The notes under the pieces are model-generated. The model was not told the origin of the DNA. It saw only the letters and a list, made by a program, of their open reading frames with translations, and made no database searches. Below are positions 368 through 59,968 of a stretch of 64,000 nucleotides of DNA, in pieces. Source of the DNA: Gammaproteobacteria bacterium (GTDB taxonomy: Bacteria > Pseudomonadota > Gammaproteobacteria > UBA4575). Position numbers and translations under genes: made by a program. Every line of letters begins with the position of its first letter. Position 1 is the first letter of the stretch. The DNA lies in contig JBGCDS010000006.1 in NCBI GenBank assembly GCA_045105615.1, forward strand, positions 3,026 through 67,025, in the 5' to 3' direction.

Positions 368-396
368 CAAAAAAATCCCCGCATTTAGCGGGGATT
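368..396. terminator. rho-independent terminator (bidirectional), mainly serving the minus-strand molybdoenzyme operon
   Basis: Stem atccccgc / gcggggat (375-382 and 388-395) with a 5-nt loop. Flanked by A7 on the plus strand, which gives a U7 tail on the minus strand. Confidence 0.7.
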
Positions 397-421: not shown

Positions 422-1360
422 CTAACACTGCTGTGTACCATGATATAGATTTACTACGTGTCGCGCTTCGGCAAAAAACAACCAGCGCTCTATCATCACA
501 CCAATAAAGCCGCTGATAACCGCAATGGCAAATACGACGTTGATTGGCATTAGACCCACGCCCACCCAAAGAACAAGTGCTGGTATTGCGAATGCAAACA
601 ACAATACTAGCCAACGCAACGCTATTAAACGTGCACGTGCTACTTCATAACCAAACTCTTCAGTTAAGAATGTTCCTGCGGTATGACCGACGTCAAGCAA
701 GCGCACCATACTTCTTGTAAACGAAGTTGCCGTATTGATAGTTGGCCCCGCCGGCGCGCCTATCCAAAAGAAATAAACAATTTTTGCAATCGCGGCAATA
801 ATAATCAAATATGTACTTGTGACAACTAAACCTGTTATCACTGGCTCATACATGGACACAATAAACAAAAATATTAAGCCACCTAACATCGCACCTAATA
901 AAATATAGTTAATAGGCGTTAGCGCGTTATGCCACTGTCTAATTGTTTTCAAGCAAGCGTAAATCATTCCTGTTGAGAAAATCGTAGTAATCGCCCACAA
1001 TGCTGAAAGCATTGAAATTATTGCTAACCAGTTATATCCCCCAATACTTTTCCATATAGTCAGCATATACAAACCAGCAATAGGATAAAACAAAATGGCT
1101 AACAACCCTTCTCGCGCCAACCAAGAGGTACGCACACGACTAAACGCACGCCATGCATTCTTAGGATTAGCTAAATGGAAAGTTGATGAGATCAAGCCAA
1201 AGGTTATTAAGCCCAGTGCAATAGCGCACGACAATAAAATACCTTCGTTGCCTAGCGGGTGTGCCTGACTAATAGAATTATACAAACATGTAATAGCAAA
1301 CAAGCCGTAGCCTGCGCCGGATGTTACCGTAAAAAATATTACTGATAGTGCTGGATGCAT
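422..1360 (-). CDS. NrfD/PsrC-type polytopic membrane anchor subunit of a Mo-bisPGD oxidoreductase (SoeC-like)
   Basis: 312 aa, about 8 predicted TM helices. Immediately downstream of, and co-directional with, the 4Fe-4S and catalytic subunit genes. Confidence 0.7.
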   Translation of the reverse strand: MHPALSVIFFTVTSGAGYGLFAITCLYNSISQAHPLGNEGILLSCAIALGLITFGLISSTFHLANPKNAWRAFSRVRTSWLAREGLLAILFYPIAGLYMLTIWKSIGGYNWLAIISMLSALWAITTIFSTGMIYACLKTIRQWHNALTPINYILLGAMLGGLIFLFIVSMYEPVITGLVVTSTYLIIIAAIAKIVYFFWIGAPAGPTINTATSFTRSMVRLLDVGHTAGTFLTEEFGYEVARARLIALRWLVLLFAFAIPALVLWVGVGLMPINVVFAIAVISGFIGVMIERWLFFAEARHVVNLYHGTQQC

Positions 1361-1378
1361 CGATATTCTTCCTTGATT

Positions 1379-2071
1379 TTATCTTGCCACTAAACGATTA
1401 ACCCAATCTTTCACTGCTTTGATTGACTTCGTTTCATTGACATAGGTATCTACATTTTTCTTTTCGCGCGGGCGTAAATATTTATTTACCGGCTCGTAAC
1501 CCAATTCAGGCATTAACTGCTCACCATTTCTTTCTCGAGAAATAATAGACACCTCTGAATTAGGATCATCAAAGTCACCGAAGTAACGTGCGTGAGACGG
1601 ACATGTCATCACACAGGCAGGCTTGCGCTCGTCTTCAGGTAAATTCTCATCGTAAATACGATCCACACATAAGGTGCACTTCTTCATCACACCATCTTCA
1701 CGATCTAACTCTCGTGCGCCATAAGGACAAGCCCATGCACAGTAGTTACATCCCATGCATTTATCCTGATCAACCAGGACAATGCCATCTTCTTCACGTT
1801 TGTAAGATGCGCCTGTTGGGCACACTGTCACGCACGCAGCATCATCACAATGCATACAAGACATTGGGAAGTGAACTGTTTTGCTGTTCGGATAATCGCC
1901 TACTTCATAGTTTCGAATACGATTAAACCAAACACCCGTTGGGTCTTTACCATAGGGTTCGAAATCTGTCAGTGGGCCAGTTGTTCCAGATGTATTCCAT
2001 TGTTTACACGCAACAGCACAGGCATTGCAGCCAACGCATGTATCTAAATCTATAACCAATCCTAGTTTCAT
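1379..2071 (-). CDS. four-cluster [4Fe-4S] ferredoxin subunit of a molybdopterin oxidoreductase (PsrB/DmsB/SoeB-like)
   Basis: 230 aa. Cys motifs CVGCNAC..C, CMHCDDAAC..CP, CMGCNYCAWACP and CTLC...C..CP. Confidence 0.85.
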   Translation of the reverse strand: MKLGLVIDLDTCVGCNACAVACKQWNTSGTTGPLTDFEPYGKDPTGVWFNRIRNYEVGDYPNSKTVHFPMSCMHCDDAACVTVCPTGASYKREEDGIVLVDQDKCMGCNYCAWACPYGARELDREDGVMKKCTLCVDRIYDENLPEDERKPACVMTCPSHARYFGDFDDPNSEVSIISRERNGEQLMPELGYEPVNKYLRPREKKNVDTYVNETKSIKAVKDWVNRLVAR

Positions 2072-2073
2072 TA

Positions 2074-5001
2074 TTACTTATCCCTCTTTGTATCGCCGCG
2101 CGTTAAAATATCTTTTAGCGAACGATTCAAGCCAACTGCTTTATGTGTTTGGTAACGTAGCTTCTCTTTTGATCTTTCCGACCCAGGTAAAGGCTTGATC
2201 GTTTCAAAGCTTGGCCATACACCTATTTCCCCTTTTTTCGCTGGATATATTTTTACCTGCAAATCATACCAAGCGGCTTGTCCAGTAATCGGGTCCGAGT
2301 TTGTAATTGGTCTTCCTGTATCACCACATGGTAGATGCTCGTTAATCAAATGATTCAACAAGAAGCCTTGATTGGATTCGTTTGCATCAGCATCTAGTCC
2401 CCATGTGCCACGTTGCTTACCAATCGCGTTCCATGTCCAGACGGTGCTTTTCTCAACACCCTCCATCAACTTAACCTGCACACGAATTCGACCAGTCTTT
2501 GATTCTAACCAGATCCAAGATAAATCCTCGATACCCATGTCTTGCGCTTGCTGACGATTCATATACATATAGTTTTGCGCAAGAATTTGGCGCAACCATG
2601 CATTTTGAGAGTCCCACGAGTGATACATCATCATCGGACGTTGAGTAATCGCATGGAATGGATACTCTTCTATAGAAGTACAGCGTTGCTCTAATGGAAT
2701 GTAGAACTCAGGCAACGGATCAAAGAAACGCGCAGTACGATATTGGTCACGCTCATCTTTTGGTTGTGGACCATCGTACAAACCTAAGCCTGCTAATCGG
2801 AATTTCTGCAATGTTTCAGAATACAATTCCATAATGATCGGCTTAGTACTACCAACAAACCCAGCATGTTTAGCGAATTCCAAATAATCTTTATTTGCAA
2901 ATCGATAAAAACGCTCATGCTTTGCTAACTTATATTCAAAGAAGCATTCGTTCTCAACATACTTCTCCCACTGTTTTGGATTCGGCTCACCGCGTAAAGA
3001 TTTCTCACCATCTTTACCACGCCATCCAGCCAAGAAACCAATCCCAGGTGCTTTTTCGTAGTTAACAATAAAGTCTTTATAGCCTTTATATTTTGCAGTG
3101 CCATCTTCATTTGTAAACGCAGGAAATTTTAAGCGCGAAGCAAGCTCAACCATCACTTCTTGCCAAGGACGTACATCCGTTGTTATCTCAACGACTGGCG
3201 CACGTATCGCATCACACACACCATCAGGTTCAGAGATAGGACGATCCAGCATTGATATTGTATCGAATCTTTCTAAGTAAGTTGTATCAGGCAATACCAA
3301 ATCAGCGAATGCCACCATCTCTGAATGGAACGCATCAGCTACTACCAAGAACGGAAGTTTATATTCACCCTTGTCGTCTTTTTCTCGCAGAAGATCTCTG
3401 ATCTTGCCAGTGTTCATGGATGAGTTCCAACTCATATTCGCCATGAAGAAAATCAATGTGTCGATTGGATAGGGGTCTCCATTAACAGCATTGGTAATAA
3501 CCATATGCATCAAACCATGGTTAGCAATCGGTGCTTCCCACGAATAAGCTTTATCTATACGTAATGGCTTACCATTCTCATCAATAACCAAATCTTCGGG
3601 ACAGGTTGGGAATCCCAATGGCGGCCCATCTAATGGCTCCCCTGGTGCTTTAGGCTTTGCTGGTTTAATTGGCGGGCAGACATGCTTAGGGAATGGTGGT
3701 TTTGCTAAATGTCCACCGGGCACATCAACACTACCTAACAATACCTGTAGCAGGTGAATTGCACGACAGGCTTGGAATCCGTTTGAATGCGCTGAAACAC
3801 CACGCATTGCATGCATAGAAACAGGTCGGCCAATAAAGCTATCATGTTTACGTCCCGCCCAATCAGTCCACTCTGTTTTAATTTCAATACTTTCTTCAAA
3901 TGCGACATGCGCCATCTCTAACGCAAGACGTTCAATCACATCTGCGGGAACACCGCAAATCTTTGTAGCATTTTCTGGAGCATACTCATCTGACAAATAG
4001 CGTTCTGCCAACAAGGTAAATGACGTCTTAACTGTTTTGCCCTCGGGTGTTTGGTACTCACCAAACAAAGCTGGCTTAATGTCTGCAAGAGTTGCATCAA
4101 CGAATGTTTCTTTTTCTAAATCCCACGCCAGCGGCTGACCTTCTTCATCACGATAAATAAGACCATCACCCACTTCTTGGGGAGTTTGCACAACAAGCTG
4201 TGTTGCATTGGTATATTGAACAACATAGTCGTAGTCGAATAAATCATTCTTCAATAAAACATGCGCCATTGATAACGCAAGCATGCCATCAGTACCCGGC
4301 TTGATTGGAACCCACTCGTCAGCAATCGCTTGGTAGCCAGTACGAACAGGGTTAATAGAAACAAACTTTGCGCCACGGCGTTTTAATTTCTCTAAACCAA
4401 TTTTAATTGGGTTGGATGAATGATCTTCTGCCACCCCCCACATTAAAAAGTATTTAGTACGGTCCCAATCTGGATCTCCGAATTCCCAAAATGATTGGCC
4501 AGTGGTATACAAACCAGCCGCCGCCATGTTCACAGAACAGAAACCACCGTGAGCCGCCCAGTTAATGGTTCCAAACTGCTGCGCCCAAAAACCTGTTAGT
4601 GCCTGCATCTGGTCTCGGCCAGTAAAGAAAGCCAATTTTTTAGGATCAGTCTTACGAATGTTATCTAAGCGCTTAGTGAGATAATCTAATGCCGTATCCC
4701 AACTTACAGGCTCGAAATCACCCTCACCACGTTCGCTGCCTTTCTTACGCATGAGCGGCTGAGTTAATTTCCCAGGAGAATTTTGTTTCATGATGCCAGC
4801 ATTACCCTTGGCACACAGCACACCCTTATTAATAGGGTGATTCTTATTACCCTGAATAAAGCGAACTAGATTATCTTCGACTGTAACCTTAATGCCGCAG
4901 CGACAGGCGCACATATAGCAAGTCGTAAACTTTTGCTCTTGTTTACTGTGGTCTTCAAATTGAGGTAAATTTTCTGGCACCGATATTCCTTTTGTGGCCA
5001 T
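2074..5001 (-). CDS. molybdopterin (Mo-bisPGD) oxidoreductase catalytic subunit with no Tat signal. Candidate SoeA (sulfite dehydrogenase, quinone)
   Basis: About 975 aa. N-terminal FeS0 motif CYMCACRCG..C. The longest ORF begins at TTG (5013), but ATG at 5001 (MATKGIS...) is the likelier start. An in-frame stop lies 4 codons upstream of the TTG. No RRxFLK motif. Confidence 0.8.
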   Translation of the reverse strand: MATKGISVPENLPQFEDHSKQEQKFTTCYMCACRCGIKVTVEDNLVRFIQGNKNHPINKGVLCAKGNAGIMKQNSPGKLTQPLMRKKGSERGEGDFEPVSWDTALDYLTKRLDNIRKTDPKKLAFFTGRDQMQALTGFWAQQFGTINWAAHGGFCSVNMAAAGLYTTGQSFWEFGDPDWDRTKYFLMWGVAEDHSSNPIKIGLEKLKRRGAKFVSINPVRTGYQAIADEWVPIKPGTDGMLALSMAHVLLKNDLFDYDYVVQYTNATQLVVQTPQEVGDGLIYRDEEGQPLAWDLEKETFVDATLADIKPALFGEYQTPEGKTVKTSFTLLAERYLSDEYAPENATKICGVPADVIERLALEMAHVAFEESIEIKTEWTDWAGRKHDSFIGRPVSMHAMRGVSAHSNGFQACRAIHLLQVLLGSVDVPGGHLAKPPFPKHVCPPIKPAKPKAPGEPLDGPPLGFPTCPEDLVIDENGKPLRIDKAYSWEAPIANHGLMHMVITNAVNGDPYPIDTLIFFMANMSWNSSMNTGKIRDLLREKDDKGEYKLPFLVVADAFHSEMVAFADLVLPDTTYLERFDTISMLDRPISEPDGVCDAIRAPVVEITTDVRPWQEVMVELASRLKFPAFTNEDGTAKYKGYKDFIVNYEKAPGIGFLAGWRGKDGEKSLRGEPNPKQWEKYVENECFFEYKLAKHERFYRFANKDYLEFAKHAGFVGSTKPIIMELYSETLQKFRLAGLGLYDGPQPKDERDQYRTARFFDPLPEFYIPLEQRCTSIEEYPFHAITQRPMMMYHSWDSQNAWLRQILAQNYMYMNRQQAQDMGIEDLSWIWLESKTGRIRVQVKLMEGVEKSTVWTWNAIGKQRGTWGLDADANESNQGFLLNHLINEHLPCGDTGRPITNSDPITGQAAWYDLQVKIYPAKKGEIGVWPSFETIKPLPGSERSKEKLRYQTHKAVGLNRSLKDILTRGDTKRDK

Positions 5002-5298
5002 TCTACTCTTCAATGAGTAGCATTAACGACTAAAGATTGGATTCCTATACGTATAATATAAACAAATAAGTATCATTTAATATTCTTATACACTAACGCT
5101 GTTCGTTTCCATGACGCCAATTAATCTTGCTAATACCCATATATCCAGAGACTCAATAGATAGAAATTGTTTAAAAAGACACCAGGATAGTGCTTAAATC
5201 ATCTCCCAAATGATTGATTTTCATGATTTTATTGCACTATTCGCGTTTTCCTAAGTCATAATGTAGTGTGACTAAAAGAACAGCAGGAGATTAACTCG

Positions 5299-5979
5299 AT
5301 GGAAGCATATGAGGGCCTAATTCAGACCATCGCACTGACCATGGGCGTTGCCTGGGCCAGTGGTATTAACCTATATGGCACCTTAGTCGCGCTTGGCGTG
5401 ATGATGAATTTAGGCTATGTGGAGCTTCCGCCTGACCTACAGGTCGTTGGTGATCCACTGGTCATCGCCGCCGCAGGTTTCATGTATATCGTCGAGTTCT
5501 TTGCCGATAAGGTTCCTGGCGTCGATACCGGCTGGGACACATTACATACGCTAGTCCGCATTCCCGCAGGTGCACTTTTAGCCGCAGGTGCTATTGGCGA
5601 AGTTGGCGCTGGCGCAGAAATTGCGGCCGCCTTGGTTGGCGGCACTATTGCCGCAGGTACTCACTTTACAAAAGCCGGTACGCGCGTACTTATTAATACC
5701 TCCCCTGAACCCTTTTCCAACTGGACGGCTTCCATCGCCGAAGATGTCGCAGTATTTGCAGGCTTATGGGCAGCACTTCAACATCCCCTATTGTTCCTGA
5801 TACTTTTGTTCATCTTCATCATATTGATGATTTGGTTATTACCTAAATTATTTCGTGCCATCAAAAAAGTCTTTCGTTTCTTTATTAACTTCTTCGCAGG
5901 TAAAAAAGAACCCGAGCCTGAGACTAGCTTTGAATCAGCCGCAGATTCAGTTGATCCACCCACCCTCACCAAAGACTAA
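5299..5979 (+). CDS. DUF4126 family membrane protein
   Basis: GVAWASGINLYGTL and VEFFADKVPGVDTGWDTLHTLVRIPAGALLAA motifs typical of DUF4126. RBS caggag. Confidence 0.6.
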   Translation: MEAYEGLIQTIALTMGVAWASGINLYGTLVALGVMMNLGYVELPPDLQVVGDPLVIAAAGFMYIVEFFADKVPGVDTGWDTLHTLVRIPAGALLAAGAIGEVGAGAEIAAALVGGTIAAGTHFTKAGTRVLINTSPEPFSNWTASIAEDVAVFAGLWAALQHPLLFLILLFIFIILMIWLLPKLFRAIKKVFRFFINFFAGKKEPEPETSFESAADSVDPPTLTKD

Positions 5980-6101: not shown

Positions 6102-6845
6102 ATGTCAAACTGGATCGACGCAGAAGTTATTGAAAACATTCGCTGGACAGATACGCTTTACTCATTAAGAGTCAAAGGCGATATTGGCGAATATGAAGCA
6201 GGTCAATTTGGCCGCTTAGGATTAATGATTGATGATCAAATTGTTGGCCGTCCTTATTCCTTTGTAAGCGCCCCACATGAAGACTTCTATGAGTTTTATT
6301 CAATTGATGTCGCCGAAGGTCTACTTTCGCCAAAACTAGCAAAGCTAGAAGCAGGCGATCATATTTACCTAGGCAAAAAAGCTAACGGATTCTTAGTGCT
6401 CAATGAAATTCCAGAAAGTGATGACCTATGGATGATTTCAACTGGTACTGGTATTGGTCCATTCTTATCAATTTTAAAAACGGAAAAACCTTGGGAACGC
6501 TTCAAAAAATGCGTATTGGTTCATGCTGTTCGTACTGCCTCTGAACTCACCTACCAAGATTTAATTAACGACGTTAAACAACAGCACCCCGATCAATTTG
6601 AGTACGTGCCATTTGTGAGTCGCGAGAAAACTGATTTCGCTTTACCCGGACGCATCCCTAAGGCATTAAAGAAAGGCAAACTTGAAGAACGAGTTGGCTT
6701 AAAGATTGAAAATGGTAAATCACAAATCATGTTATGCGGCAATCCAGACATGGTAAAAGATGTGCGTGAAACATTAGAAAAACGCGGCATGACTAAAAAC
6801 CTTCGCAAAACACCAGGCAGTATTAGCACAGAAAATTATTGGTAA
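6102..6845 (+). CDS. fpr: ferredoxin/flavodoxin--NADP+ reductase
   Basis: 247 aa, near full-length similarity to E. coli Fpr (NWTD.LFSL, GQF.KLGL, WM.ATGT.IGP.LSIL, MLCGNP.MV, HY/NYW C-terminus). Confidence 0.9.
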   Translation: MSNWIDAEVIENIRWTDTLYSLRVKGDIGEYEAGQFGRLGLMIDDQIVGRPYSFVSAPHEDFYEFYSIDVAEGLLSPKLAKLEAGDHIYLGKKANGFLVLNEIPESDDLWMISTGTGIGPFLSILKTEKPWERFKKCVLVHAVRTASELTYQDLINDVKQQHPDQFEYVPFVSREKTDFALPGRIPKALKKGKLEERVGLKIENGKSQIMLCGNPDMVKDVRETLEKRGMTKNLRKTPGSISTENYW

Positions 6846-6858
6846 TCGCCCAACCAAA

Positions 6859-8010
6859 ATGTTCATATCCAATCATTCACAAAAATCAATTCATTCTATA
6901 AATCTATTTTTACTTGTTCTACTTTTGCAATTAAGCTCACTCGCAATCGCTGAGAATATTTATTCTTCTGATCAACATGATTTCAAACTTACCGAAATTA
7001 CAGACGGCTTAGAACGTCCCTGGGGTTTAGCCTTTCTCCCTAATGGTGATTTCTTGGTTACTGAAAGAGTTGGTCGATTAAGAATAGTTAAATCTGGAAA
7101 ACTTATTGAACAAGAAATTACTGGCCTACCAAAAAATATTTTTGCCAAAGGACAGGGAGGCCTATTAGACGTCGTTATCCATCCTGACTTTAAAGCGAAC
7201 GGCCTGATTTATATTTCATATGCTGGTCGTGGCAAGGGAGGTGCAGGCACTGAAGTCGCTAGAGCTCGACTCACAGACAATCAACTTGTCGACTTAGAAA
7301 CTATTTTTATTGTTGAACCTAAAACACCGGGGAGTCTTCACTATGGCTCAAGATTAGTGTTTGCAAACGATGGGACTTTATTTATTACGACAGGTGATCG
7401 CTACGACCGTTTGCATGAAGCACAAAAGCCTAGCAATCACCTAGGTGCGATTATTCGCATTCACGATGATGGCTCAGTGCCAAATGACAACCCATTTGTT
7501 GATCACGAAAATTACCTGCCTGAAATTTATTCGTACGGCCATCGTAATGCACAGGGTGTCGCCATGCGTATGACTGATCACTCTATTTGGGCACATGAGC
7601 ATGGTCCACGTGGTGGCGATGAAATCAACAAGCTTAAAGCTGGAGCAAACTATGGATGGCCTGCGATTACCTATGGCATTGATTACAGTGGTGCCATTAT
7701 TTCCGAGAAAACTCATGCAGTCGGAATGGAGCAGCCCATTGTTTATTGGGATCCTTCTATTGCACCTAGCGGCATGACTTTCTATTCAGGCGATAATTTT
7801 CCGCAGTGGAAAGGTGATATCTTTGTTGGCGCACTTGTATTAAAGCATTTGCGTCGCTTGAAAATGCAAGGTGACAGGGTTATCAGTCAAGAAATTTTAC
7901 TAGAGGGCATGGCTCGTATTCGCGATGTGCGTAATGGCCCTGATGGCTACTTATATATTCTTACTGATGAAAAAAATGGCAAGCTATTAAGATTAGAGCC
8001 CATAAAATAA
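6859..8010 (+). CDS. PQQ-dependent soluble sugar (aldose/sorbosone) dehydrogenase, YliI/Asd family, with signal peptide
   Basis: Beta-propeller motifs (PWGLAFLPNGDFLVTER, GRLRIV), N-terminal signal peptide. Confidence 0.75.
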   Translation: MFISNHSQKSIHSINLFLLVLLLQLSSLAIAENIYSSDQHDFKLTEITDGLERPWGLAFLPNGDFLVTERVGRLRIVKSGKLIEQEITGLPKNIFAKGQGGLLDVVIHPDFKANGLIYISYAGRGKGGAGTEVARARLTDNQLVDLETIFIVEPKTPGSLHYGSRLVFANDGTLFITTGDRYDRLHEAQKPSNHLGAIIRIHDDGSVPNDNPFVDHENYLPEIYSYGHRNAQGVAMRMTDHSIWAHEHGPRGGDEINKLKAGANYGWPAITYGIDYSGAIISEKTHAVGMEQPIVYWDPSIAPSGMTFYSGDNFPQWKGDIFVGALVLKHLRRLKMQGDRVISQEILLEGMARIRDVRNGPDGYLYILTDEKNGKLLRLEPIK

Positions 8011-8032
8011 CCCTGACCAATTAACGCCATAC

Positions 8033-8410
8033 TTGATGCTGACTTACAATGAATTTAATACCTTTTGTGACTCACTTGCTGTGACATCACATGTAGTTCA
8101 GTGGGGGCATTCTCATGTATGGAAAGTATCAGACAAAGTATTTGCCATTGGTGGCTGGCAAAAAACCGCATCACCAGCATTTACATTTAAAGTCTCAGAG
8201 ATTTCATTTGAGATTTTAAAAGATTTACCAGGGCTACGACCCGCACCTTATTTTGCTTCGCGCGGAATGTCGTGGATTCAGCATTATGATGAACCTGGAT
8301 TACCAAACGATGAGCTTAAGGAATACATACTTGAATCACACCGTATTTTATCACTTGGTTTTTCTAAGAAAAAAAGGAAATCACTGGGGCTTTACTCTAA
8401 CGAACTATAG
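8033..8410 (+). CDS. MmcQ/YjbR family putative DNA-binding protein
   Basis: 125 aa with the YjbR-like fold signature (VFAI..W...F.FK). Confidence 0.5.
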   Translation: MMLTYNEFNTFCDSLAVTSHVVQWGHSHVWKVSDKVFAIGGWQKTASPAFTFKVSEISFEILKDLPGLRPAPYFASRGMSWIQHYDEPGLPNDELKEYILESHRILSLGFSKKKRKSLGLYSNEL

Positions 8411-8500
8411 GTGTAATTATTTATTCAATATGCTGACCTGCTATTCATCATAAGCACAACGAAAACCAATTGAGCCATAGATACTACGTACATTAACAGA

Positions 8501-9001
8501 CTAATTGTCTTTTAATGTTCGCGGCGTCATTAGAGACTTTTTAGTCCCACAGTCAGGACCGATGGATTTCCATTCATCAACAAGCAATTGAATACTATAA
8601 ACTGCACAGGTAGGTAAATTTGAAAGCCGGTCACCTGTTAAATAGTTACATAATTCAGTCAGACCAGGATTATGAGCAATCAGCGCTACATGCTGATCTT
8701 GATCACTCAACTGCTCAATAAATGATACTAAATGAGCCACTGGTGCTAAATATAAGGATTGCTCATAGCAAATACTGTCTTCAGGTAGCGTCAAAAAATG
8801 ATTTAACTCTTGCAGTGTTAGCCTTGCACGATTTGCTTTACTGCAATACAACCTATCAAATGGTTGATTATTAGCAATTAAGTAGTCACCAATTAACTGC
8901 GCATCGCTGCAGCCACGATCATTTAATGCCCTATCAAAATCCCTGCAGCCTGCAGACCAGTCAGATTTAGCATGGCGAATAACACTAAGCTGCTTACTCA
9001 T
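8501..9001 (-). CDS. histidine phosphatase superfamily protein, SixA-like phosphohistidine phosphatase
   Basis: N-terminal VIRHAKS (RHG/RHA catalytic motif) and IAHNPGL (SixA HxP motif). 166 aa. Confidence 0.55.
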   Translation of the reverse strand: MSKQLSVIRHAKSDWSAGCRDFDRALNDRGCSDAQLIGDYLIANNQPFDRLYCSKANRARLTLQELNHFLTLPEDSICYEQSLYLAPVAHLVSFIEQLSDQDQHVALIAHNPGLTELCNYLTGDRLSNLPTCAVYSIQLLVDEWKSIGPDCGTKKSLMTPRTLKDN

Positions 9002-9112
9002 ATAGTCATGTTAATAATTGTTATATAAAATCTCAATGTTTGTTTATTGTAGACAGTGGTAGAACCTGTAAAATGAGCGCCTCAATTAAAATCACTTATA
9101 GGTCTAGATGAT

Positions 9113-9538
9113 ATGCGTATCGCTACTTTAACCATTGCAAGCTTACTGACTTTATCCACAACCCATCTAGCCATAGCAGCTGATAGCGTTTCAATTGAAC
9201 CGGGCTTATGGGAAGTATCTACCACAATGACTTCACCAATGTTTCCTCAGCCGCGCGTTCAAACTCAACAAGAGTGCATGCAAGAATCACAAATCAGCCC
9301 AGAAACTCTCGCTCCTAGCGAAAACGGCGAATGCACTATAGTGGATACTAATATCAGTGGTGACACGCTAAGTTGGTCTATGCGGTGCAGCACCCCTGGC
9401 GGCGTTATGAAGGGTCAGGGCTCATTTGAATCTAAGGGTGATTCTGGTTCTGGCAACATGCAAATGAACATGGATATTGAAGGCCAGTCTTTCTCTATGG
9501 AGTTAGTCTGGAAAGGTCGCCGAGTAGGTTCTTGTTAA
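9113..9538 (+). CDS. DUF3617-like secreted protein
   Basis: Signal peptide, then the PGLWE motif. 141 aa. Confidence 0.5.
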   Translation: MRIATLTIASLLTLSTTHLAIAADSVSIEPGLWEVSTTMTSPMFPQPRVQTQQECMQESQISPETLAPSENGECTIVDTNISGDTLSWSMRCSTPGGVMKGQGSFESKGDSGSGNMQMNMDIEGQSFSMELVWKGRRVGSC

Positions 9539-9637
9539 CTCTCTAGCCTTAGAAATAATTCATACTTAATACACTTTGCGGCAGGATCATGCTGTCGCTT
9601 TATCTTTTTTAAATTAATCTTAAGGAGCATAGTAAAT

Positions 9638-10186
9638 ATGTCAGATCGAATTGTCATGCGCGTAGGCGAATCATTAGTTGCAGGCGGACCTGCTGGTACA
9701 GCAGCAGAACCTGAAGTCATTATCGGCGAGTTAGATGGTCCAGTGGGCACTGCGTTTGCTACTTTATTAGGTGACCAAGTCAAAGGACACTCACGTGTTC
9801 TTGCTATTATGAACACTGATATACAAGTTCGCCCTGCTACTTTAATGGTCAGCAAGGTTACGGTTAAAGATGATCGTTACACAAATATTCTAATGGGTAC
9901 TGTGCAAGCAGCAATTGCTAACGGTGTTTTAGACGCAGTACGTAATGGCGACATTCCTAAAGAAAAAGCTAACGACCTAGGAATCATTGTTTCAGTTTGG
10001 TTAAACCCTATGGTAGCAACTGCTGATGATTTAGATCACAAAATCTTGTTTGATATTCACCGCAAAGCAATGGCGGGCGCAATTCATAAAGCAATGAATA
10101 ATGAGCCTAATATTGATTGGTTATTAGAAAACCAAGAAGAGATTACCCATAAGTATTACCAAATGGGATTAGACGGAAAAATTTAA
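9638..10186 (+). CDS. fae: formaldehyde-activating enzyme (Fae) family protein
   Basis: 182 aa. Aligns along its length with methylotroph Fae (VGE.LVG.G..A....IIG...G..ETAF...L......H..LLA.....P.TLM..KVT). Strong RBS aaggag upstream. Confidence 0.7.
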   Translation: MSDRIVMRVGESLVAGGPAGTAAEPEVIIGELDGPVGTAFATLLGDQVKGHSRVLAIMNTDIQVRPATLMVSKVTVKDDRYTNILMGTVQAAIANGVLDAVRNGDIPKEKANDLGIIVSVWLNPMVATADDLDHKILFDIHRKAMAGAIHKAMNNEPNIDWLLENQEEITHKYYQMGLDGKI

Positions 10187-10221
10187 TCTGTTAGGCCTGC
10201 AAGACAGAGACAGTAAAAATA

Positions 10222-11292
10222 TTGTCTCTGTCTTCACCGCCAAAAGTCTATGTAGCTTTGCTTCTATCTTATTACAAGAAATTCATCTTTACAGTTTTCG
10301 CACTCAGTTGCGTTTTACTCATCACCGGTTGTGAGCCAGAAAAGCCTGGTCCACAGATTACTGGTAGCACAATGGGCACAAGCTATAGTGTTCAGTGGTC
10401 TGATACATCCATCTCACTTTCCACCCCAGAATTAAAAGACTTAATAGAACTACGTCTAGGCCGAATTAATTCGTTAATGTCGACGTATATCCCAAACTCT
10501 CAATTAAGCGGTTTTAATCAGTCGCGTGAAACTGGCTGGCATGCAGTCGATAGTGAATTAGCTAAACTTATAAAATTAGCATTATCGATCAGTGAAAAAA
10601 CCGATGGCGCATTCGACATTACAGTTGGACCATTAGTTAACTTATGGGGATTTGGTCCAAGCGACACAGCTTTTATCTTTCCCACAGACACAGAAATTAA
10701 TATTGCTAAGCGCAGTATTGGTTACCAACATCTTGAAGTGCGCATTGATCCACCTGCGGTGAATAAGAAAATTGCAGACCTGTATGTTGATTTATCCGCC
10801 ATTGCCAAAGGCTATGCGGTTGACGAAATTGCACAGATTCTTGATGACAATCATGTACGAAACTACATGGTTGAAATTGGCGGAGAGGTTAAAGGCAGTG
10901 GTATTGCTCCTCATGGCAACCCATGGCGAATAGGCATTGAAACACCTAACTTTGAGCGCGGGAAAATAGAAAAAATAATTTCTCTACAGAATGTCGGTGT
11001 AGCAACATCTGGCGACTATCGCAATTTCATCAAGCATGAAGGTAAGCGTTATTCACATACCATAGACCCACGTAATGGATATCCTGTCAGCCACAACTTA
11101 GGCTCGGTTACGGTGATACACCAATCTACTGCCATTGCAGATGCTTGGGCAACTGCATTTATAGTGTTAGGCCCAAAGAAAAGCTATCAACTAGCTAGCG
11201 ATAACAATTTATCAGGTGTGCTCATCACACGTGAAGGTATTAATCATACTTCGACCATATTCGGCAAGATGCAATCTTATCTTGCACAATAA
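10222..11292 (+). CDS. apbE: FAD:protein FMN transferase ApbE, lipoprotein
   Basis: GSTMGTSY (GxTMGT) motif, lipobox LLITGC. The start codon is uncertain: TTG at 10222 sits inside a hairpin, and an alternative TTG lies at 10258. Confidence 0.8.
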   Translation: MSLSSPPKVYVALLLSYYKKFIFTVFALSCVLLITGCEPEKPGPQITGSTMGTSYSVQWSDTSISLSTPELKDLIELRLGRINSLMSTYIPNSQLSGFNQSRETGWHAVDSELAKLIKLALSISEKTDGAFDITVGPLVNLWGFGPSDTAFIFPTDTEINIAKRSIGYQHLEVRIDPPAVNKKIADLYVDLSAIAKGYAVDEIAQILDDNHVRNYMVEIGGEVKGSGIAPHGNPWRIGIETPNFERGKIEKIISLQNVGVATSGDYRNFIKHEGKRYSHTIDPRNGYPVSHNLGSVTVIHQSTAIADAWATAFIVLGPKKSYQLASDNNLSGVLITREGINHTSTIFGKMQSYLAQ

Positions 11293-18837: not shown

Positions 18838-20964
18838 GTGAAAAGAATTATAATATTTTTAGTCATCATTGCCTCGATTATTTTTGGCCTGACCTATTTT
18901 GACATTGGTAGCTATCTCACATTCAGCGAACTGAAAGAGCGCCAATCTGAACTACAGTCACTAGTTAGCAACAACCCATTCAAAGCTGCCGCAATATTCT
19001 TTTCTATCTATGTGATTGCCACCGCCATTTCTGTACCAGGTGCTTTTATATTTACACTCGCTGGCGGCGCACTATTTGGTTTAACTCAAGGTACGATATT
19101 AGTATCATTTGCCTCTACCATTGGCGCATTGTTTGCCTATCTAGTGGCTCGCTACTTTCTGCATGATGTTGTACAAAACAAATTTTCTGACCGACTTGGA
19201 CTAATTAACCGCAAAGTTGATGAAGAAGGCGCATTTTATCTATTATTCCTGCGCTTAGTTCCTGTATTTCCTTTTTTCCTGGTGAACTTGGTAATGGCGT
19301 TAACACCGATTCGCGCATTTACTTTTTATTGGGTCAGCCAACTTGGCATGCTTCCTGCCACATTAATATATGTGAATGCAGGTACGCAAATAGCTAAGAT
19401 CTCTTCACCCGGTGACATTGCCTCACCATCATTAATTTTCGCATTGGTGTTACTTGGTATTTTGCCATTCATCACTAAAGGCATTATGTCTATATTAAAA
19501 AGTAAACGCGTATATAAAAAATTTACAAAACCCACTTCATTTGAATACAACACTATCGTTGTTGGCGGCGGCTCTGCTGGCTTGGTTGCGTCTTACACAA
19601 CTAGCACTCTACAAGGCAAGGTCCTATTAGTTGAGAGACATCAAATGGGTGGTGACTGTCTAAACACTGGATGTGTTCCCTCCAAGTCTATTTTACGCAG
19701 CGCAAAGTTTGTCGCTGATTTAAAAGATTTTGAATCCTATGGTTTATCCAAGGCTAATTACGAGCTTGAATTTAAAAATATCATGTCAAGAGTTCATGAC
19801 AAGATTGCAGTGATAGAGCCAAAAGACTCTGTTGCGCGTTACACAGAGTTAGGTGTTGAGTGTGAACAGGGGGATGCAGCTATCATTTCACCATGGCAAG
19901 TAAAAATTAATGACAAAACATTAAACACCAAAAATATTATCATCGCCACTGGTGCTTCTCCAGCATTGCCTGATATTACAGACCTAGATAAAATTCCTTA
20001 CTATACAACTGACACCGTCTGGTCAATAACTGAGGCGCCTAAAAAATTATTAGTCATTGGCGCTGGGCCCATTGGTTGTGAACTAGGGCAGGCCTTTGCA
20101 CGATTGGGTTCTGATGTTTCTATCGCGAATAATCACGCAACAATCTTACCTAACGAAGATGCTGAAGCAGCCAAGATCGTTGAGGCATCACTATTAAAAG
20201 ACGACATCACACTATTGAATAACTTCAAGTCTGATAAATTCATCAATGACTTCGACAATTACTCTTTAGTTGGTACACAAGACGATTCAATTACCAATAT
20301 CAGCTTTACACACTTATTAATCGCCACTGGTCGAAAAGCAAACATTGAAGGTATGGATGCCCTTGATTTAGAAATTAACGATCAGGGCCGCATAGAAACT
20401 AACGCAACATTACAAACAATGTATCCTAATGTTTATGCCTGCGGCGATGTCACTAGTTCTATGCAGTATACGCATACGGCTTCTCATCAAGCCTGGTATG
20501 CAGCATTCAATGCATTATTTCATCCGATAAAGAAATTTAAGTGCACGCTAAACAATATACCTCGTGCTGTATTCACTGATCCTGAAATCACTAGCGTGGG
20601 TATTACCGAGCAACAAGCGATCGACCAGGGTATAAACCATCAAGTCACTACTTTTCCTATGGATGATATTGATCGCGCAATTACCGATAATGCTACAGCA
20701 GGATTTGTTAAAGTTATCACTCCGGTAAATAGTGATGAAATACTAGGCGTATGCATTGTCGGCGAACATGCTAGCGAATTAATTGCTGAATTTGTACTCG
20801 CCAAAACCAATGGCCTAGGTTTGAATAAAATATTGAAAACAGTACACATCTACCCAACCAGAAGTGAAATCAACCGAATGGTTGCTGGAAAATGGCGTCG
20901 CTCTAAATTAACTGCACGCACTCTTGATATACTAAAAAAATTCCAATCATGGAGACTAGGTTAA
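18838..20964 (+). CDS. fusion protein: N-terminal DedA/TVP38/TMEM64 membrane domain + C-terminal class I pyridine nucleotide-disulfide (flavoprotein disulfide) reductase
   Basis: GTG start. About 230-aa polytopic DedA-like N-terminus. Then GGGSAGL FAD motif, redox-active GGDCLNTGCVPSK (CxxxxC), a second Rossmann GAGPIGCE, and C-terminal HIYPTRSE His-Glu dyad. No MerA-type C-terminal Cys pair. Confidence 0.8.
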   Translation: MKRIIIFLVIIASIIFGLTYFDIGSYLTFSELKERQSELQSLVSNNPFKAAAIFFSIYVIATAISVPGAFIFTLAGGALFGLTQGTILVSFASTIGALFAYLVARYFLHDVVQNKFSDRLGLINRKVDEEGAFYLLFLRLVPVFPFFLVNLVMALTPIRAFTFYWVSQLGMLPATLIYVNAGTQIAKISSPGDIASPSLIFALVLLGILPFITKGIMSILKSKRVYKKFTKPTSFEYNTIVVGGGSAGLVASYTTSTLQGKVLLVERHQMGGDCLNTGCVPSKSILRSAKFVADLKDFESYGLSKANYELEFKNIMSRVHDKIAVIEPKDSVARYTELGVECEQGDAAIISPWQVKINDKTLNTKNIIIATGASPALPDITDLDKIPYYTTDTVWSITEAPKKLLVIGAGPIGCELGQAFARLGSDVSIANNHATILPNEDAEAAKIVEASLLKDDITLLNNFKSDKFINDFDNYSLVGTQDDSITNISFTHLLIATGRKANIEGMDALDLEINDQGRIETNATLQTMYPNVYACGDVTSSMQYTHTASHQAWYAAFNALFHPIKKFKCTLNNIPRAVFTDPEITSVGITEQQAIDQGINHQVTTFPMDDIDRAITDNATAGFVKVITPVNSDEILGVCIVGEHASELIAEFVLAKTNGLGLNKILKTVHIYPTRSEINRMVAGKWRRSKLTARTLDILKKFQSWRLG

Positions 20965-20968
20965 CAAT

Positions 20969-21964
20969 ATGCGCGAAACTAAACATTTGTTATTCCCTGG
21001 CAACTTCCCTGTAATTAAAAGAAGCAATCTAACCACATTACAAGTCAACCTTGGTTACAAGTGCAATCAGTCCTGTACACACTGTCATGTTAATGCTGGG
21101 CCTAATCGCACTGAAATGATGGATGATGCAACGCTAGATTTAATCATCAAATACATCTCTGAAAATAATGTATCGCTACTCGATGTCACTGGCGGCGCAC
21201 CAGAACTTCACCCACGATTTCGCGAGCTAGTCATCGCTGCAAGAAAAGCTGGCGTGACTTTACGTGACCGATGTAATCTAACTATTCTGTTTGAACCTAA
21301 CCAAGAAGATCTGGCACAGTTTTTGGCCGATAATCATGTTGAAATAGTTGCGTCTCTCCCCTGTTACACAGAAGACACTGTCAACAAGCAGCGCGGCAAA
21401 GGTGTATTCACGCTAAGCATTGAAGCTTTACAACAACTAAACACACTTGGCTATGCTACGGACAGCGCACTCAATTTACACTTAGTCTTCAATCCTAGTG
21501 GCCCAGTATTACCACCCTCTCAGGTAGAACTAGAAAAGCAGTACAAGGAACGTCTATTAGAAGATCATAACGTTAGGTTTAATGACCTCTTTGTCATTAC
21601 TAATATGCCTATTCAGCGCTTTGGTAGCAGTCTACTTTCTACTGGCCATTTTGATGGTTATATGGATACCTTACGCGCTAATCACCAAGACGATAATCTT
21701 GACACCGTCATGTGTAGAGACACAGTCAGCATTGACTGGCAGGGTAACGTGTATGACTGCGACTTTAACCAAATGCTAGAAGAACCTGTGTATTCAAAAG
21801 AGAAACAGGCATTACATATACGTGATTTATTTGCTACTAATCTCAGTGATTTATCGATAAAGACTGGCAACCATTGTTTTGGTTGTACTGCCGGCCAGGG
21901 TAGCAGCTGTTCTGGTGCATTATCTGACGCACTATTAGACACAGCCGCCGAATCCGTAAATTAG
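20969..21964 (+). CDS. radical SAM protein with C-terminal Cys-rich domain (ArsS-like, TIGR04167-type)
   Basis: CNQSCTHC (CxxxCxxC) radical SAM cluster motif and C-terminal CFGCTAGQGSSC Cys cluster. 4-bp gap after the upstream gene, GGAG RBS. Confidence 0.7.
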   Translation: MRETKHLLFPGNFPVIKRSNLTTLQVNLGYKCNQSCTHCHVNAGPNRTEMMDDATLDLIIKYISENNVSLLDVTGGAPELHPRFRELVIAARKAGVTLRDRCNLTILFEPNQEDLAQFLADNHVEIVASLPCYTEDTVNKQRGKGVFTLSIEALQQLNTLGYATDSALNLHLVFNPSGPVLPPSQVELEKQYKERLLEDHNVRFNDLFVITNMPIQRFGSSLLSTGHFDGYMDTLRANHQDDNLDTVMCRDTVSIDWQGNVYDCDFNQMLEEPVYSKEKQALHIRDLFATNLSDLSIKTGNHCFGCTAGQGSSCSGALSDALLDTAAESVN

Positions 21965-58761: not shown

Positions 58762-58784
58762 TGCCTGGCCTCTCTGGCTAGGCA
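58762..58784. terminator. putative bidirectional terminator between rpmG and the desaturase gene
   Basis: tgcctggcc-tctct-ggctaggca hairpin (9 bp including one G-U), with T-rich flanks on both strands. Confidence 0.5.
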
Positions 58785-59968
58785 TGATTGTATATCGGTT
58801 GCAGCGAATAACTACGCAAAGACCGAGCAAACTCCACTAATACCCTTATTCCTGTCGCTTCTGCCTGCTGACACCATTCAGTCACTGCTTTAAGCATTCC
58901 TTCGTTATTCTTGTATCGACGCGTCCACACCTCTGTCAGGCGTTGTTGATAGTCATAGACCGTCTTAAGTTGCAAATTATCATGTAGGATCTGATTGAGA
59001 TGCTCCATCTGTGGTGCAGTAATAAGACTACGCTCTCGAATGATAGCTTTTTGTACACGCTTCAAAGTAGTTCTAGAATTTCCATTAGCCTGCCCTATTT
59101 CAGCTTTTAGCACTGGTAAAGTCACCTGCTTGGCATAGTCTGCCATGACATGAAGCTTACTGGTCAACATCGCGCGAACTGAATCAAGGTCGAGTAGCTC
59201 TTTCTCTTCATTTTGTTGTTTTGGCCTAGGAGCCACTTTTTTCACTTTCGCTAACCCCAACGCACTAAGTAACCGAATATACATCCAGCCAATATCAAAT
59301 TCCCACCAATGCACTGAAAAGCGCGCTGAGCTTGGATAGGCATGGTGATTATTATGCAGCTCTTCGCCACCAATAATAATGCCGATGTTGGTCAAGTTTG
59401 TAGAGCCATCCTGTGGTTCAAAATTACGGTAGCCCCAATAGTGACCTGCACCGTTGACAAGCCCAGCAGCAAAGATAGGAATCCAGGCCAATTGAATTGC
59501 CCAATATGTGAGTCCAATTGGTCCAAATAAAGCCAGGTAAACAAACAGACAGATTCCCATACCCGTGAAGCTATAAGACTTATAAATCTTGTGCTCGATC
59601 CAATCATCAGGCGTGCCGTGTCCGTATTCTTCACTTACCTGTGGGTCAAATGCTGAGATTCGATAAAGCTCCGCACCTTCGAGCAATACTTTTTTTATGC
59701 CATGCACATAGGGACTGTGGGGATCATTTTCACTCTCAGTATGCGCATGGTGTTTGCGATGAACTGCGACCCATTCTTTTGTGTTTTGCCCAGTAGTAAA
59801 CCATAACCAAAATCGGAAAATGTGACTAACAAACGGATGCAGAGTAATCGCATGGTGTGCCTGGCAGCGATGCAGGTATAAAGTCACCGAGACAATTGTA
59901 AGGTGGGTAGCGAGTAATACGCAGATTAAATCACCCCACCAAGGTAATTGTAAAAGTCCATCTAGCAT
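58778..59968 (-). CDS. membrane-bound acyl-CoA (delta-9-type) fatty acid desaturase
   Basis: His boxes HRCQAHH, HRKHHAH, HNNHHAYP. 396 aa with a C-terminal extension. Confidence 0.85.
   Translation of the reverse strand: MLDGLLQLPWWGDLICVLLATHLTIVSVTLYLHRCQAHHAITLHPFVSHIFRFWLWFTTGQNTKEWVAVHRKHHAHTESENDPHSPYVHGIKKVLLEGAELYRISAFDPQVSEEYGHGTPDDWIEHKIYKSYSFTGMGICLFVYLALFGPIGLTYWAIQLAWIPIFAAGLVNGAGHYWGYRNFEPQDGSTNLTNIGIIIGGEELHNNHHAYPSSARFSVHWWEFDIGWMYIRLLSALGLAKVKKVAPRPKQQNEEKELLDLDSVRAMLTSKLHVMADYAKQVTLPVLKAEIGQANGNSRTTLKRVQKAIIRERSLITAPQMEHLNQILHDNLQLKTVYDYQQRLTEVWTRRYKNNEGMLKAVTEWCQQAEATGIRVLVEFARSLRSYSLQPIYNHA

Follow-up and report, generated by a model that had tools for sequence, protein, structure and literature searches.

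Does a three-gene molybdoenzyme operon from a gammaproteobacterium encode a sulfite dehydrogenase that faces the cytoplasm, or one of the exported reductases that share its fold? The operon is in a stretch of 64,000 nt of contig JBGCDS010000006.1 (the window; coordinates count from its first letter). Three open reading frames (ORFs) span 5001-422 on the minus strand, in the order A-B-C. The first, soeA (2074..5001), was identified as an ORF with Pfam support for a catalytic subunit with a molybdo-bis(pyranopterin guanine dinucleotide) cofactor (Mo-bisPGD; 975 aa, 110.4 kDa). It is followed by soeB (1379..2071) for an electron-transfer subunit with four Cys motifs for 4 x [4Fe-4S] (230 aa, 26.0 kDa) and soeC (422..1360) for a haem-less quinone-binding membrane anchor with eight predicted transmembrane helices (312 aa, 34.3 kDa).

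We consider it very probable that this locus encodes a SoeABC-type sulfite dehydrogenase (quinone) (EC 1.8.5.6). This was the candidate function put forward in the original prediction, which had described the catalytic-ferredoxin-anchor complex and its protein lengths as we find them. Gene order, the absence of leaders for twin-arginine translocation (Tat), the predicted topology of the anchor, the Cys ligand, the quinone-site residues and the clade membership of SoeA all support the assignment. The complexes of Allochromatium vinosum (Alvin_2491-2489), Ruegeria pomeroyi (SPO3559-3557) and Aquifex aeolicus (anchor aq_1231) likewise consist of three subunits in the order A-B-C. They share with the window proteins a Mo-bisPGD and FS0 subunit of ~110 kDa with a Cys ligand to Mo, a four-cluster ferredoxin of ~26 kDa, the lack of a Tat leader on both of these, and an eight-helix haem-less anchor of ~34 kDa that is predicted to be inverted. 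We infer the sulfite substrate, the direction of electron flow and the quinone type from the enzymes described in A. vinosum and R. pomeroyi (genetic evidence) and A. aeolicus (biochemical evidence).

Export signals and orientation of the anchor

The ATG of soeA at 5001 is preceded by a Shine-Dalgarno-like site (GAAGAG). A TTG four codons further up, at 5013, is an alternative start from which the protein would have 979 aa (4 residues longer). Because an in-frame TAA lies upstream at 5025-5023, SoeA can have at most 4 extra N-terminal residues. The first Cys of its N-terminal FS0 [4Fe-4S] motif (C28-x2-C31-x3-C35...C63) is residue 28, and there is therefore no room for a Tat leader. Subunit B starts with MKLGLVIDLDT, 11 residues ahead of its first Cys motif, and has no signal peptide. 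Thus, the absence of leaders from both subunits and the stop codon close upstream of the longest possible start, all noted in the original prediction, are borne out, and no leader is present under any other start.

The same holds for the relatives of the operon. We compared the closest 80 homologous loci from a scan of species-representative genomes, of which 79 keep the A-B-C order. In none of the 80 A frames does a twin-arginine (RR) motif precede the first cluster Cys, including when the frame is lengthened up to the preceding stop codon. These frames have a median of 31.5 residues ahead of the cluster Cys and a conserved start (LPxFEDHxxQExKxTTCYMCACRCG). The start of subunit B, M(K/R)LGLVIDLDT, is conserved in 79 loci; five RR matches in B occur only in artificially extended frames of G+C-rich genomes. 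Judged from these frames, lacking a Tat leader is characteristic of the family and not due to chance. Among the positive controls, E. coli DmsA shows SRRGLV, with its first Cys beyond residue 60, and canonical Tat leaders are present in the related P0129, P0168 and P0246.

The anchor matches the Pfam family DmsC (PF04976, E 2e-22) and does not match Pfam NrfD. A review of NrfD proteins places both DmsC and SoeC in an NrfD-like superfamily (PMC8076601), so that the earlier description of an NrfD-type anchor holds at the level of the superfamily but not at that of the Pfam family. Crude hydropathy segmentation and charge calculation gave eight helices, with 15 Lys and Arg residues on the N-terminal side of the membrane versus 1 on the other side. 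Based on the positive-inside rule, this 15:1 bias places both termini in the cytoplasm. The same bias was found in 75 of 77 family anchors (median 16 versus 1). The control, E. coli DmsC, whose partner subunits are periplasmic, gave 4 versus 8. SoeC is thus predicted to be inverted relative to DmsC, which fits a cytoplasm-facing enzyme, and with DmsC as the control its orientation would be opposite to that of the Psr type. Inversion relative to DmsC and PsrC, with the quinone site on the cytoplasmic side, is what has been expected for SoeC (PMC8076601).

The quinone-site residues of A. aeolicus SoeC are Ser6, His65, Ser82, Ser85, Glu87 and Thr132 (PMC8076601). Their counterparts in the window protein, mapped by a constant offset of -2/-3 from the A. 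aeolicus numbering and not by alignment to aq_1231, are S6, H62, S79, (A82), E84 and T130. H62, S79 and E84 are invariant (80 of 80 anchors, a set that includes distant Azospirillum and Paraburkholderia copies), S6 and T130 are present in 78, and position 82 is Ser in 53. All of the counterparts are in or beside predicted cytoplasmic loops.

PhsA is the top NCBIfam match of SoeA, and PsrA is its top sequence match in the PDB. This would be the pattern for a periplasmic Psr/Phs/Ttr/Arr-type reductase whose Tat leader had been missed through a wrong start or a sequence error. However, the scores are far below the equivalog cut-offs (PhsA 219.6/694, TtrA 102.6/1750, ArrA 100.6/1600, DmsA-YnfE 132.5/777.7). 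The original prediction had named two outcomes that would speak against SoeABC: clustering with Tat-dependent PsrA or PhsA together with a leader under a different start, or best hits in a non-Soe clade. No start yields a leader, and none of the PhsA, PsrA, TtrA, ArrA and DmsA cut-offs is approached. The charge bias of the anchor is opposite to that of DmsC, and identity to solved ArrA and PsrA is only 18-20%. The 80 independent loci also argue against a frameshift that hides a leader. Given the equivalog scores, the upstream TAA and the 80 frames without RR, we reject the periplasmic Psr/Phs reading, which is hardly credible for this locus.

Active site of SoeA and its relatives

Subunit A contains the Pfam domains Molybdop_Fe4S4, Molybdopterin and Molydop_binding. 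Its Cys155 is aligned with Cys173 of Thermus thermophilus PsrA, which we take to be the Mo ligand in the 2VPW structure. Cys155 is invariant across a 61-sequence alignment (mean column identity 60%) and is the predicted Mo ligand of SoeA. This agrees with the listing of SoeA as a Cys-ligated MopB family (PMC10100899). Other invariant active-site motifs are TCYMCACRCG, NWAAHGGFCSVNMA, AMRGxSAHSNGFQ, DKAYSWEAPxxxHGxMH, MANMxWNSxMN, QRPMxMYHSWDSQNAWLRQ and NSDPITGQAAWYDL.

The AlphaFold2 model of SoeA has a predicted local distance difference test score of 82 and a predicted template modelling score of 0.86. The nearest solved folds, identified using Foldseek, are ArrA, PcrA and PsrA, at 17-20% identity. 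By sequence, the best solved relative is T. thermophilus PsrA (E 4e-45, over the N-terminal third only). To our knowledge, there is no solved structure of SoeABC. PsrABC/PhsABC (T. thermophilus, 2VPW) and ArrAB (6CZ7) share the fold of the complex iron-sulfur molybdoenzymes (CISM; Foldseek E 1e-36 to 1e-40, template modelling score 0.73-0.78 on the target). Psr and Arr also have Cys-ligated Mo and a four-cluster B subunit, and Psr has an NrfD-like anchor. Unlike window SoeA, to which they are 18-20% identical, these catalytic subunits are Tat-exported, periplasm-facing and ~200 residues shorter.

We also considered NarGHI, the other cytoplasm-facing CISM. NarG has ~1,240 aa and an Asp ligand, and its anchor NarI is a dihaem cytochrome b. 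The narG score of SoeA is 40.5 bits versus a cut-off of 1084, and this, together with the DmsC-type anchor, speaks against NarGHI.

Subunit B matches Pfam Fer4_11. It contains 16 Cys in four cluster motifs, as counted by eye in the translation: CxxCxxCxxxC, CxxCx4CxxxCP, CxxCxxCxxxCP and CxxCx17CxxxCP. It has NCBIfam matches of the DmsB, ArrB and NrfC type, every one of them under the equivalog cut-off. Identity is 60% to an Azospirillum B subunit and 39% to E. coli DmsB.

SoeA is 69-96% identical to its counterparts in the best 80 genomic loci. Metagenome-assembled genomes (MAGs) of Thiotrichales and other Gammaproteobacteria are at 78-96%, and the range of 69-74% includes sulfur oxidisers and the marine heterotrophs Billgrantia, Aliamphritea, Pontibacterium, Motiliproteus, Granulosicoccus and Arenicella. 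In a large protein database, the closest matches are metagenome proteins (up to 93%), followed at 70-74% over the full length by proteins of Thioalkalivibrio, Acidihalobacter, Thermithiobacillus, Acidithiobacillus, Ectothiorhodospira, Alkalilimnicola and Thioflexithrix. Exact matching of window SoeA and SoeB identified no identical record for either protein.

Several of these relatives belong to operons named soeABC in the literature. SoeA is 69-74% identical to the subunits of Thioalkalivibrio, 'Ca. Albibeggiatoa' WS_Bin3 and Thiorhodospira sibirica (72%), and homologues of Ectothiorhodospira and Acidithiobacillus sulfuriphilus are in the same range. Genes for soeABC were found in all 75 Thioalkalivibrio strains using A. 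vinosum SoeABC as the query (PMC6382920). The operon of 'Ca. Albibeggiatoa psychrophila' WS_Bin3, a Beggiatoaceae MAG, was called soeABC (PMC11172852). The genes were also reported in Thiorhodospira sibirica and described as 'completely conserved' among the dsr- and hdr-positive sulfur oxidisers surveyed (PMC6397845). In Acidithiobacillus, the soeABC of A. caldus heads a cluster with rhd-tusA-dsrE-hdr (PMC6335251). In our own searches, no soeB or soeC was identified within 10 kb downstream of soeA in Thiorhodospira sibirica ATCC 700588, although the literature lists soeABC there.

A homology search seeded with P0121 (63% identical to window SoeA) returned proteins of Burkholderiales and not of Chromatiaceae. 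They are 60-64% identical to window SoeA, and the Joint Genome Institute (JGI) names many of them 'sulfite dehydrogenase (quinone) subunit SoeA'; most betaproteobacterial homologues carry this name. A tblastn search of plasmids identified SoeA homologues at 52-57% in Azospirillum, Paraburkholderia, Burkholderia and Rhizobium. On plasmid p4 of Azospirillum brasilense, an A-B-C operon (57% in A) directly adjoins a pta-like gene and xsc, which encodes sulfoacetaldehyde acetyltransferase, an enzyme that releases sulfite. This neighbourhood mirrors that of R. pomeroyi, where soeCBA (SPO3557-3559) adjoins pta (SPO3560) and tauR (SPO3562) (PMC4334477). The active-site motifs of window SoeA and of the xsc-linked Azospirillum enzyme are essentially identical.

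In a neighbour-joining tree, window SoeA is nested in a Tat-less clade that holds the SoeA named in the literature and by JGI. Its nearest named neighbour is from Thiothrix. From the outside inwards, the clade comprises P0125, the Paraburkholderia sequences, the Azospirillum sequences, betaproteobacterial SoeA and a group of gammaproteobacterial and Acidithiobacillia sulfur oxidisers that includes window SoeA. Within this last group, mutual SoeA identity is 68-77%. The bacterial SreA (bSreA)/SoeA sequences have been described as a separate MopB family that is cytoplasmic, Cys-ligated and matched 1,354 times, and that is so conserved that clustering at 50% drops nearly all members (PMC10100899). 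Our search of representative sequences agrees with this conservation: one full-length representative was above 50% identity (P0121), and the next were at 43-44%. This search returned mostly fragments, and gives the boundaries of the family and not a full tree.

The sister group of the Tat-less clade consists of the larger proteins P0126 (1074 aa), P0129 (1183 aa) and P0168 (1452 aa), all of which score below every NCBIfam equivalog cut-off. Their identity to window SoeA is 32-39% by pairwise BLASTP (36-44% by phmmer), and they are 100-480 residues longer. Shared features are the HGGFC loop of the Mo-Cys and the motifs AMRGxxxHSNGFQ, DRPIS and DPxTGQ; among the differences in active-site motifs, HGxMH is replaced by HRxxS/T and MYHSWDSQNAW by xYHxWxxxNPW. 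P0129 has the leader RRRHFLQ and P0168 has TRRDFLK, while P0126 has no RR motif and its start looks truncated. These three are apparently an uncharacterised family of periplasmic enzymes. P0125 (898 aa) is Tat-less and 40-43% identical to window SoeA. Several of the motifs that are invariant in SoeA are degenerate in P0125, with VDGACASN in place of HGGFCSVN and MIAGGDGGAPW in place of MYHSWDSQNAW. This protein may represent an offshoot that is divergent or has no catalytic function.

The potential of the sulfite/sulfate couple is very low, and for this reason the oxidative direction, towards the quinone, is strongly favoured. The opposite function, in which a cytoplasm-facing enzyme would use quinol to reduce elemental sulfur, polysulfide or tetrathionate, was first described for the 'sulfur reductase' of Aquifex aeolicus, and we regard it as very unlikely here. 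The idea draws on the grouping of bacterial SreA (Aquifex; cytoplasmic and Cys-ligated) with SoeA in one MopB family (PMC10100899) and on the best matches outside the family, which by sequence are PhsA (NCBIfam) and T. thermophilus PsrA, with ArrA and PcrA slightly ahead of PsrA by fold. However, the current description of the Aquifex complex with anchor aq_1231 is that of a sulfite:quinone oxidoreductase (Boughanemi 2020, cited in PMC8076601). Also, the family is linked to sulfite-producing systems (xsc; the sulfur-oxidising Hdr (sHdr) cluster of A. caldus, PMC6335251; co-occurrence with Dsr or sHdr, PMC6397845), and not to genes of anaerobic respiration.

A SoeABC-type enzyme would function as follows. 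Because neither has a Tat leader, SoeA and SoeB would remain in the cytoplasm, where they would fold and take up their cofactors. They would dock on the cytoplasmic face of SoeC, the eight-helix NrfD/DmsC-like anchor, which would be inverted with respect to DmsC and PsrC. Sulfite would bind at the Cys155-ligated Mo-bisPGD centre of SoeA and be oxidised to sulfate, with electrons passing via FS0 and the four [4Fe-4S] clusters to a quinone near the cytoplasmic face of the anchor. The quinol would feed the respiratory chain. SoeABC would thus both clear toxic sulfite from the cytoplasm and harvest its electrons.

The Thioalkalivibrio copies and points against the assignment

Published analyses disagree on where the window subclade stands with respect to A. 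vinosum SoeA (PMC6620896, PMC6382920), and the dispute concerns the copies found in Thioalkalivibrio. Ahn et al. divided Thioalkalivibrio SoeA into cluster 1, which groups with A. vinosum, and a separate, 'Soe-like' cluster 2 that has no Tat leader, is induced by arsenite and, according to its authors, has no proven substrate (PMC6620896). In strain ARh2, the two types are soeA1B1C1 (G372_RS0102930-40) and soeC2B2A2 (G372_RS0108330-40), and strain ALM2 has the cluster 2 type only (PMC6620896). Berben et al. recognised a group I, with one copy per strain, that groups with the SoeA of other sulfur oxidisers, and a 'more distantly related' group II of extra copies that are ~55% similar (PMC6382920).

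The two classifications can be connected through one locus. The Tv. thiocyanoxidans ARh2 locus in our set (L015; C-B-A in record coordinates) is 99% identical to that of ALJ3, a strain with a single copy. Thus, L015 is the universal copy, which is Ahn's cluster 2. This universal soeABC (Berben group I) is 73-74% identical to the window operon in A, 76-77% in B and 48-51% in C, and resembles it in gene order, in the lack of a Tat leader and in motifs. It is 68-77% identical to the soeA of Thiorhodospira and WS_Bin3, and to the homologues of Acidithiobacillus, Thiothrix and Thiomargarita. The operons differ in their surroundings: the Thioalkalivibrio operon, which is arsenite-induced (PMC6620896), is flanked by moaA, whereas that of the window is flanked by DUF4126, Fpr-like and Fae genes.

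The nearest Thioalkalivibrio homologue of window SoeA (L015, 73-74%) is thus soeC2B2A2, which was induced by As(III) in two arsenite-oxidising strains, one of them with no known arsenite oxidase (PMC6620896). This raises the possibility of a 'Soe-like' paralogue with the same cytoplasm-facing architecture that detoxifies arsenite or thioarsenate by oxidation, with or without sulfite as a further substrate. The arsenite proposal is based on transcriptomics only, however. Every one of the 75 Thioalkalivibrio strains has this copy, and 12 of the strains have no other candidate for the oxidation of sulfite (PMC6382920). The operons reported as soeABC in Thiorhodospira and Beggiatoaceae are similarly close to window SoeA (PMC6397845, PMC11172852), and soeABC was present in all of the dsr- or hdr-positive sulfur oxidisers surveyed (PMC6397845). 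The active-site motifs of the L015 type are identical to those of the xsc-linked Azospirillum enzyme, and Pfam annotation identified no ars, arx or aio genes in the 64-kb window. Because the universal type matches soeA operons and the xsc-linked active-site motifs, we retain oxidation of arsenite as a very unlikely function of the enzyme.

Several observations weigh against the assignment as SoeABC. The Thioalkalivibrio copy nearest to window SoeA is the one that Ahn et al. set apart from the A. vinosum cluster, although Berben et al. placed it the opposite way (PMC6620896, PMC6382920). A. vinosum SoeA is not among the best 80 loci or the best 120 matches listed, and the link to SoeABC was made through operons named in the literature or by JGI, not by alignment to Alvin_2491, SPO3559 or aq_1234. 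For matches of the gammaproteobacterial type, the JGI label is only a COG name, 'anaerobic selenocysteine-containing dehydrogenase' (12 of 12). A SoeA model is apparently absent from NCBIfam, which thus provides no curated threshold. The topology of the anchor is prediction only, given the crude calculation from which it comes. Finally, we did not identify a sulfite-generating pathway in the 64-kb window or in the flanks (+/-10 kb) of close relatives.

The NCBI labels on proteins of the SoeA type are 'molybdopterin oxidoreductase family protein', 'formate dehydrogenase' and 'nitrate reductase'. It is because curated libraries are without a SoeA model that such proteins are annotated only under the first two of these names.

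Operon structure, neighbourhood and source of sulfite

The three soe genes are translationally coupled. The gap between soeA and soeB is 2 nt, and the Shine-Dalgarno site of soeB (AGAGGG) is within the 3' end of soeA. An 18-nt spacer between soeB and soeC holds a second site (AAGGAAG). Transcription could end at an intrinsic terminator hairpin (374..396, minus strand) identified by a terminator scan and by direct reading of the sequence. It consists of AATCCCCGC-TAAAT-GCGGGGATT followed by TTTTTGCG, a nine-pair G+C-rich hairpin with a T-run, 26 nt past the soeC stop. The hairpin can also serve the plus strand, for a small convergent ORF at 17-352. Upstream of soeA is an AT-rich intergenic region of 297 bp (5002..5298, minus strand), the presumed promoter and 5' untranslated region, which is shared with a divergent DUF4126 gene (5299-5979, plus strand). 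A promoter scan of 5002..5298 detected no consensus sigma-70 promoter upstream of soeA. An Rfam scan of the whole 64 kb found no family at gathering score (no tRNA, rRNA or riboswitch, including the Moco riboswitch).

The junction of soeA and soeB is interrupted in two of the related loci. In a Thiotrichaceae MAG (L035:3910-7473), soeA is separated from soeB by four small-gene pairs in tandem (~141 + 131 aa, with a PIN-like second member), which resemble an array of toxin-antitoxin modules within the operon. In a Thiomargarita MAG (L044:12916-15542), two ORFs (531 + 190 aa) break the junction.

The G+C content of the window is about 41%. Apart from the soe operon, Pfam annotation of the window identified housekeeping and miscellaneous genes, namely those for DUF4126, an Fpr-like reductase, a sorbosone-dehydrogenase-like protein, Fae, ApbE, a MATE pump, an AcrB-type pump, PPK2, glutamate-cysteine ligase, GroEL, DsbD, acetyl-CoA carboxylase subunits, purine biosynthesis and Rho. 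At 18838-21964 (plus strand), a gene for a pyridine-nucleotide disulfide oxidoreductase fused to a VTT membrane domain at its N terminus precedes one for a radical-SAM/DUF3641 protein, and this pair is syntenic in relatives. A 396-aa ORF at 58778-59968 (minus strand) combines a fatty-acid desaturase domain (residues 9-225) with a C-terminal part of an ISL3-family DDE transposase (273-387). This arrangement suggests an insertion sequence insertion or a fusion that truncates the desaturase.

Among the annotated ORFs of the 64 kb, we found no dsr, sox, apr, hdr or sulfonate genes in the ORF lists or by Pfam. The original prediction had also seen no sulfonate genes in the window. Its suggestion that the sulfite comes from catabolism of sulfonates, dimethylsulfoniopropionate (DMSP) or taurine is possible but unsupported, as the window provides no clue and the nearest named relatives of window SoeA are lithotrophic sulfur oxidisers. 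The xsc-linked version of the enzyme is on a more distant branch (57%). In lithotrophic sulfur oxidisers, SoeABC partners with reverse Dsr (rDsr) or sHdr (PMC6397845). The window operon differs from those of R. pomeroyi and Azospirillum in having no adjacent xsc or pta, and from that of A. caldus in having no adjacent sHdr cluster. An ORF for an HdrC-like ferredoxin, at most a candidate hdr gene, is located ~6 kb downstream in Acidithiobacillus sulfuriphilus (L045).

A census of neighbours in the 80 loci found no family in more than 16 and no conserved partner beyond A, B and C. Thus, we consider the soe operon to be self-contained. Genes for Moco biosynthesis flank it in A. sulfuriphilus (moaC upstream and moaA downstream) and in Thioalkalivibrio sp. 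ALJ7 (L018; moaA upstream). The other recurrent neighbours are unrelated genes by Pfam.

Upstream of the operon, a block of genes for Fae (formaldehyde-activating enzyme), ApbE, a histidine phosphatase and an Fpr-like NAD-binding reductase (6102-11292, plus strand) is syntenic with the operon down to 78% SoeA identity (L083 and L088) and is gone at 74%. In 15 loci, soeA has an Fpr-like gene nearby; in the three inspected (L083, L088 and L089), this gene is directly upstream of soeA and divergent from it. We read the conservation of the block as lineage synteny. Fae hints at one-carbon (C1) metabolism linked to tetrahydromethanopterin (H4MPT) in this lineage. We examined the synteny of Fae and soe as a mark of a C1-sulfonate pathway and found no support for this idea: monooxygenase and sulfonate genes are absent from the flanks, and relatives at 74% identity no longer show the synteny. 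It is very unlikely that the window-type enzyme is a broader oxyanion oxidase (for example, co-oxidising arsenite or thioarsenate) or that the Fae-Fpr-soeABC neighbourhood reflects catabolism of C1-sulfonates such as methanesulfonate. In the latter case, formaldehyde and sulfite would be released together in the cytoplasm, and a methylotroph-type formaldehyde system would be tied to SoeABC.

The operon described here very probably adds one more SoeABC, from an uncultured marine gammaproteobacterial lineage, to a family that is well known and very conserved. SoeABC occurs in more than a thousand genomes and serves as a standard marker in surveys of the sulfur cycle. Its presence would indicate that this organism handles sulfite in the cytoplasm and passes the electrons into the quinone pool, which is not surprising, but may be useful for metabolic reconstruction of the lineage.

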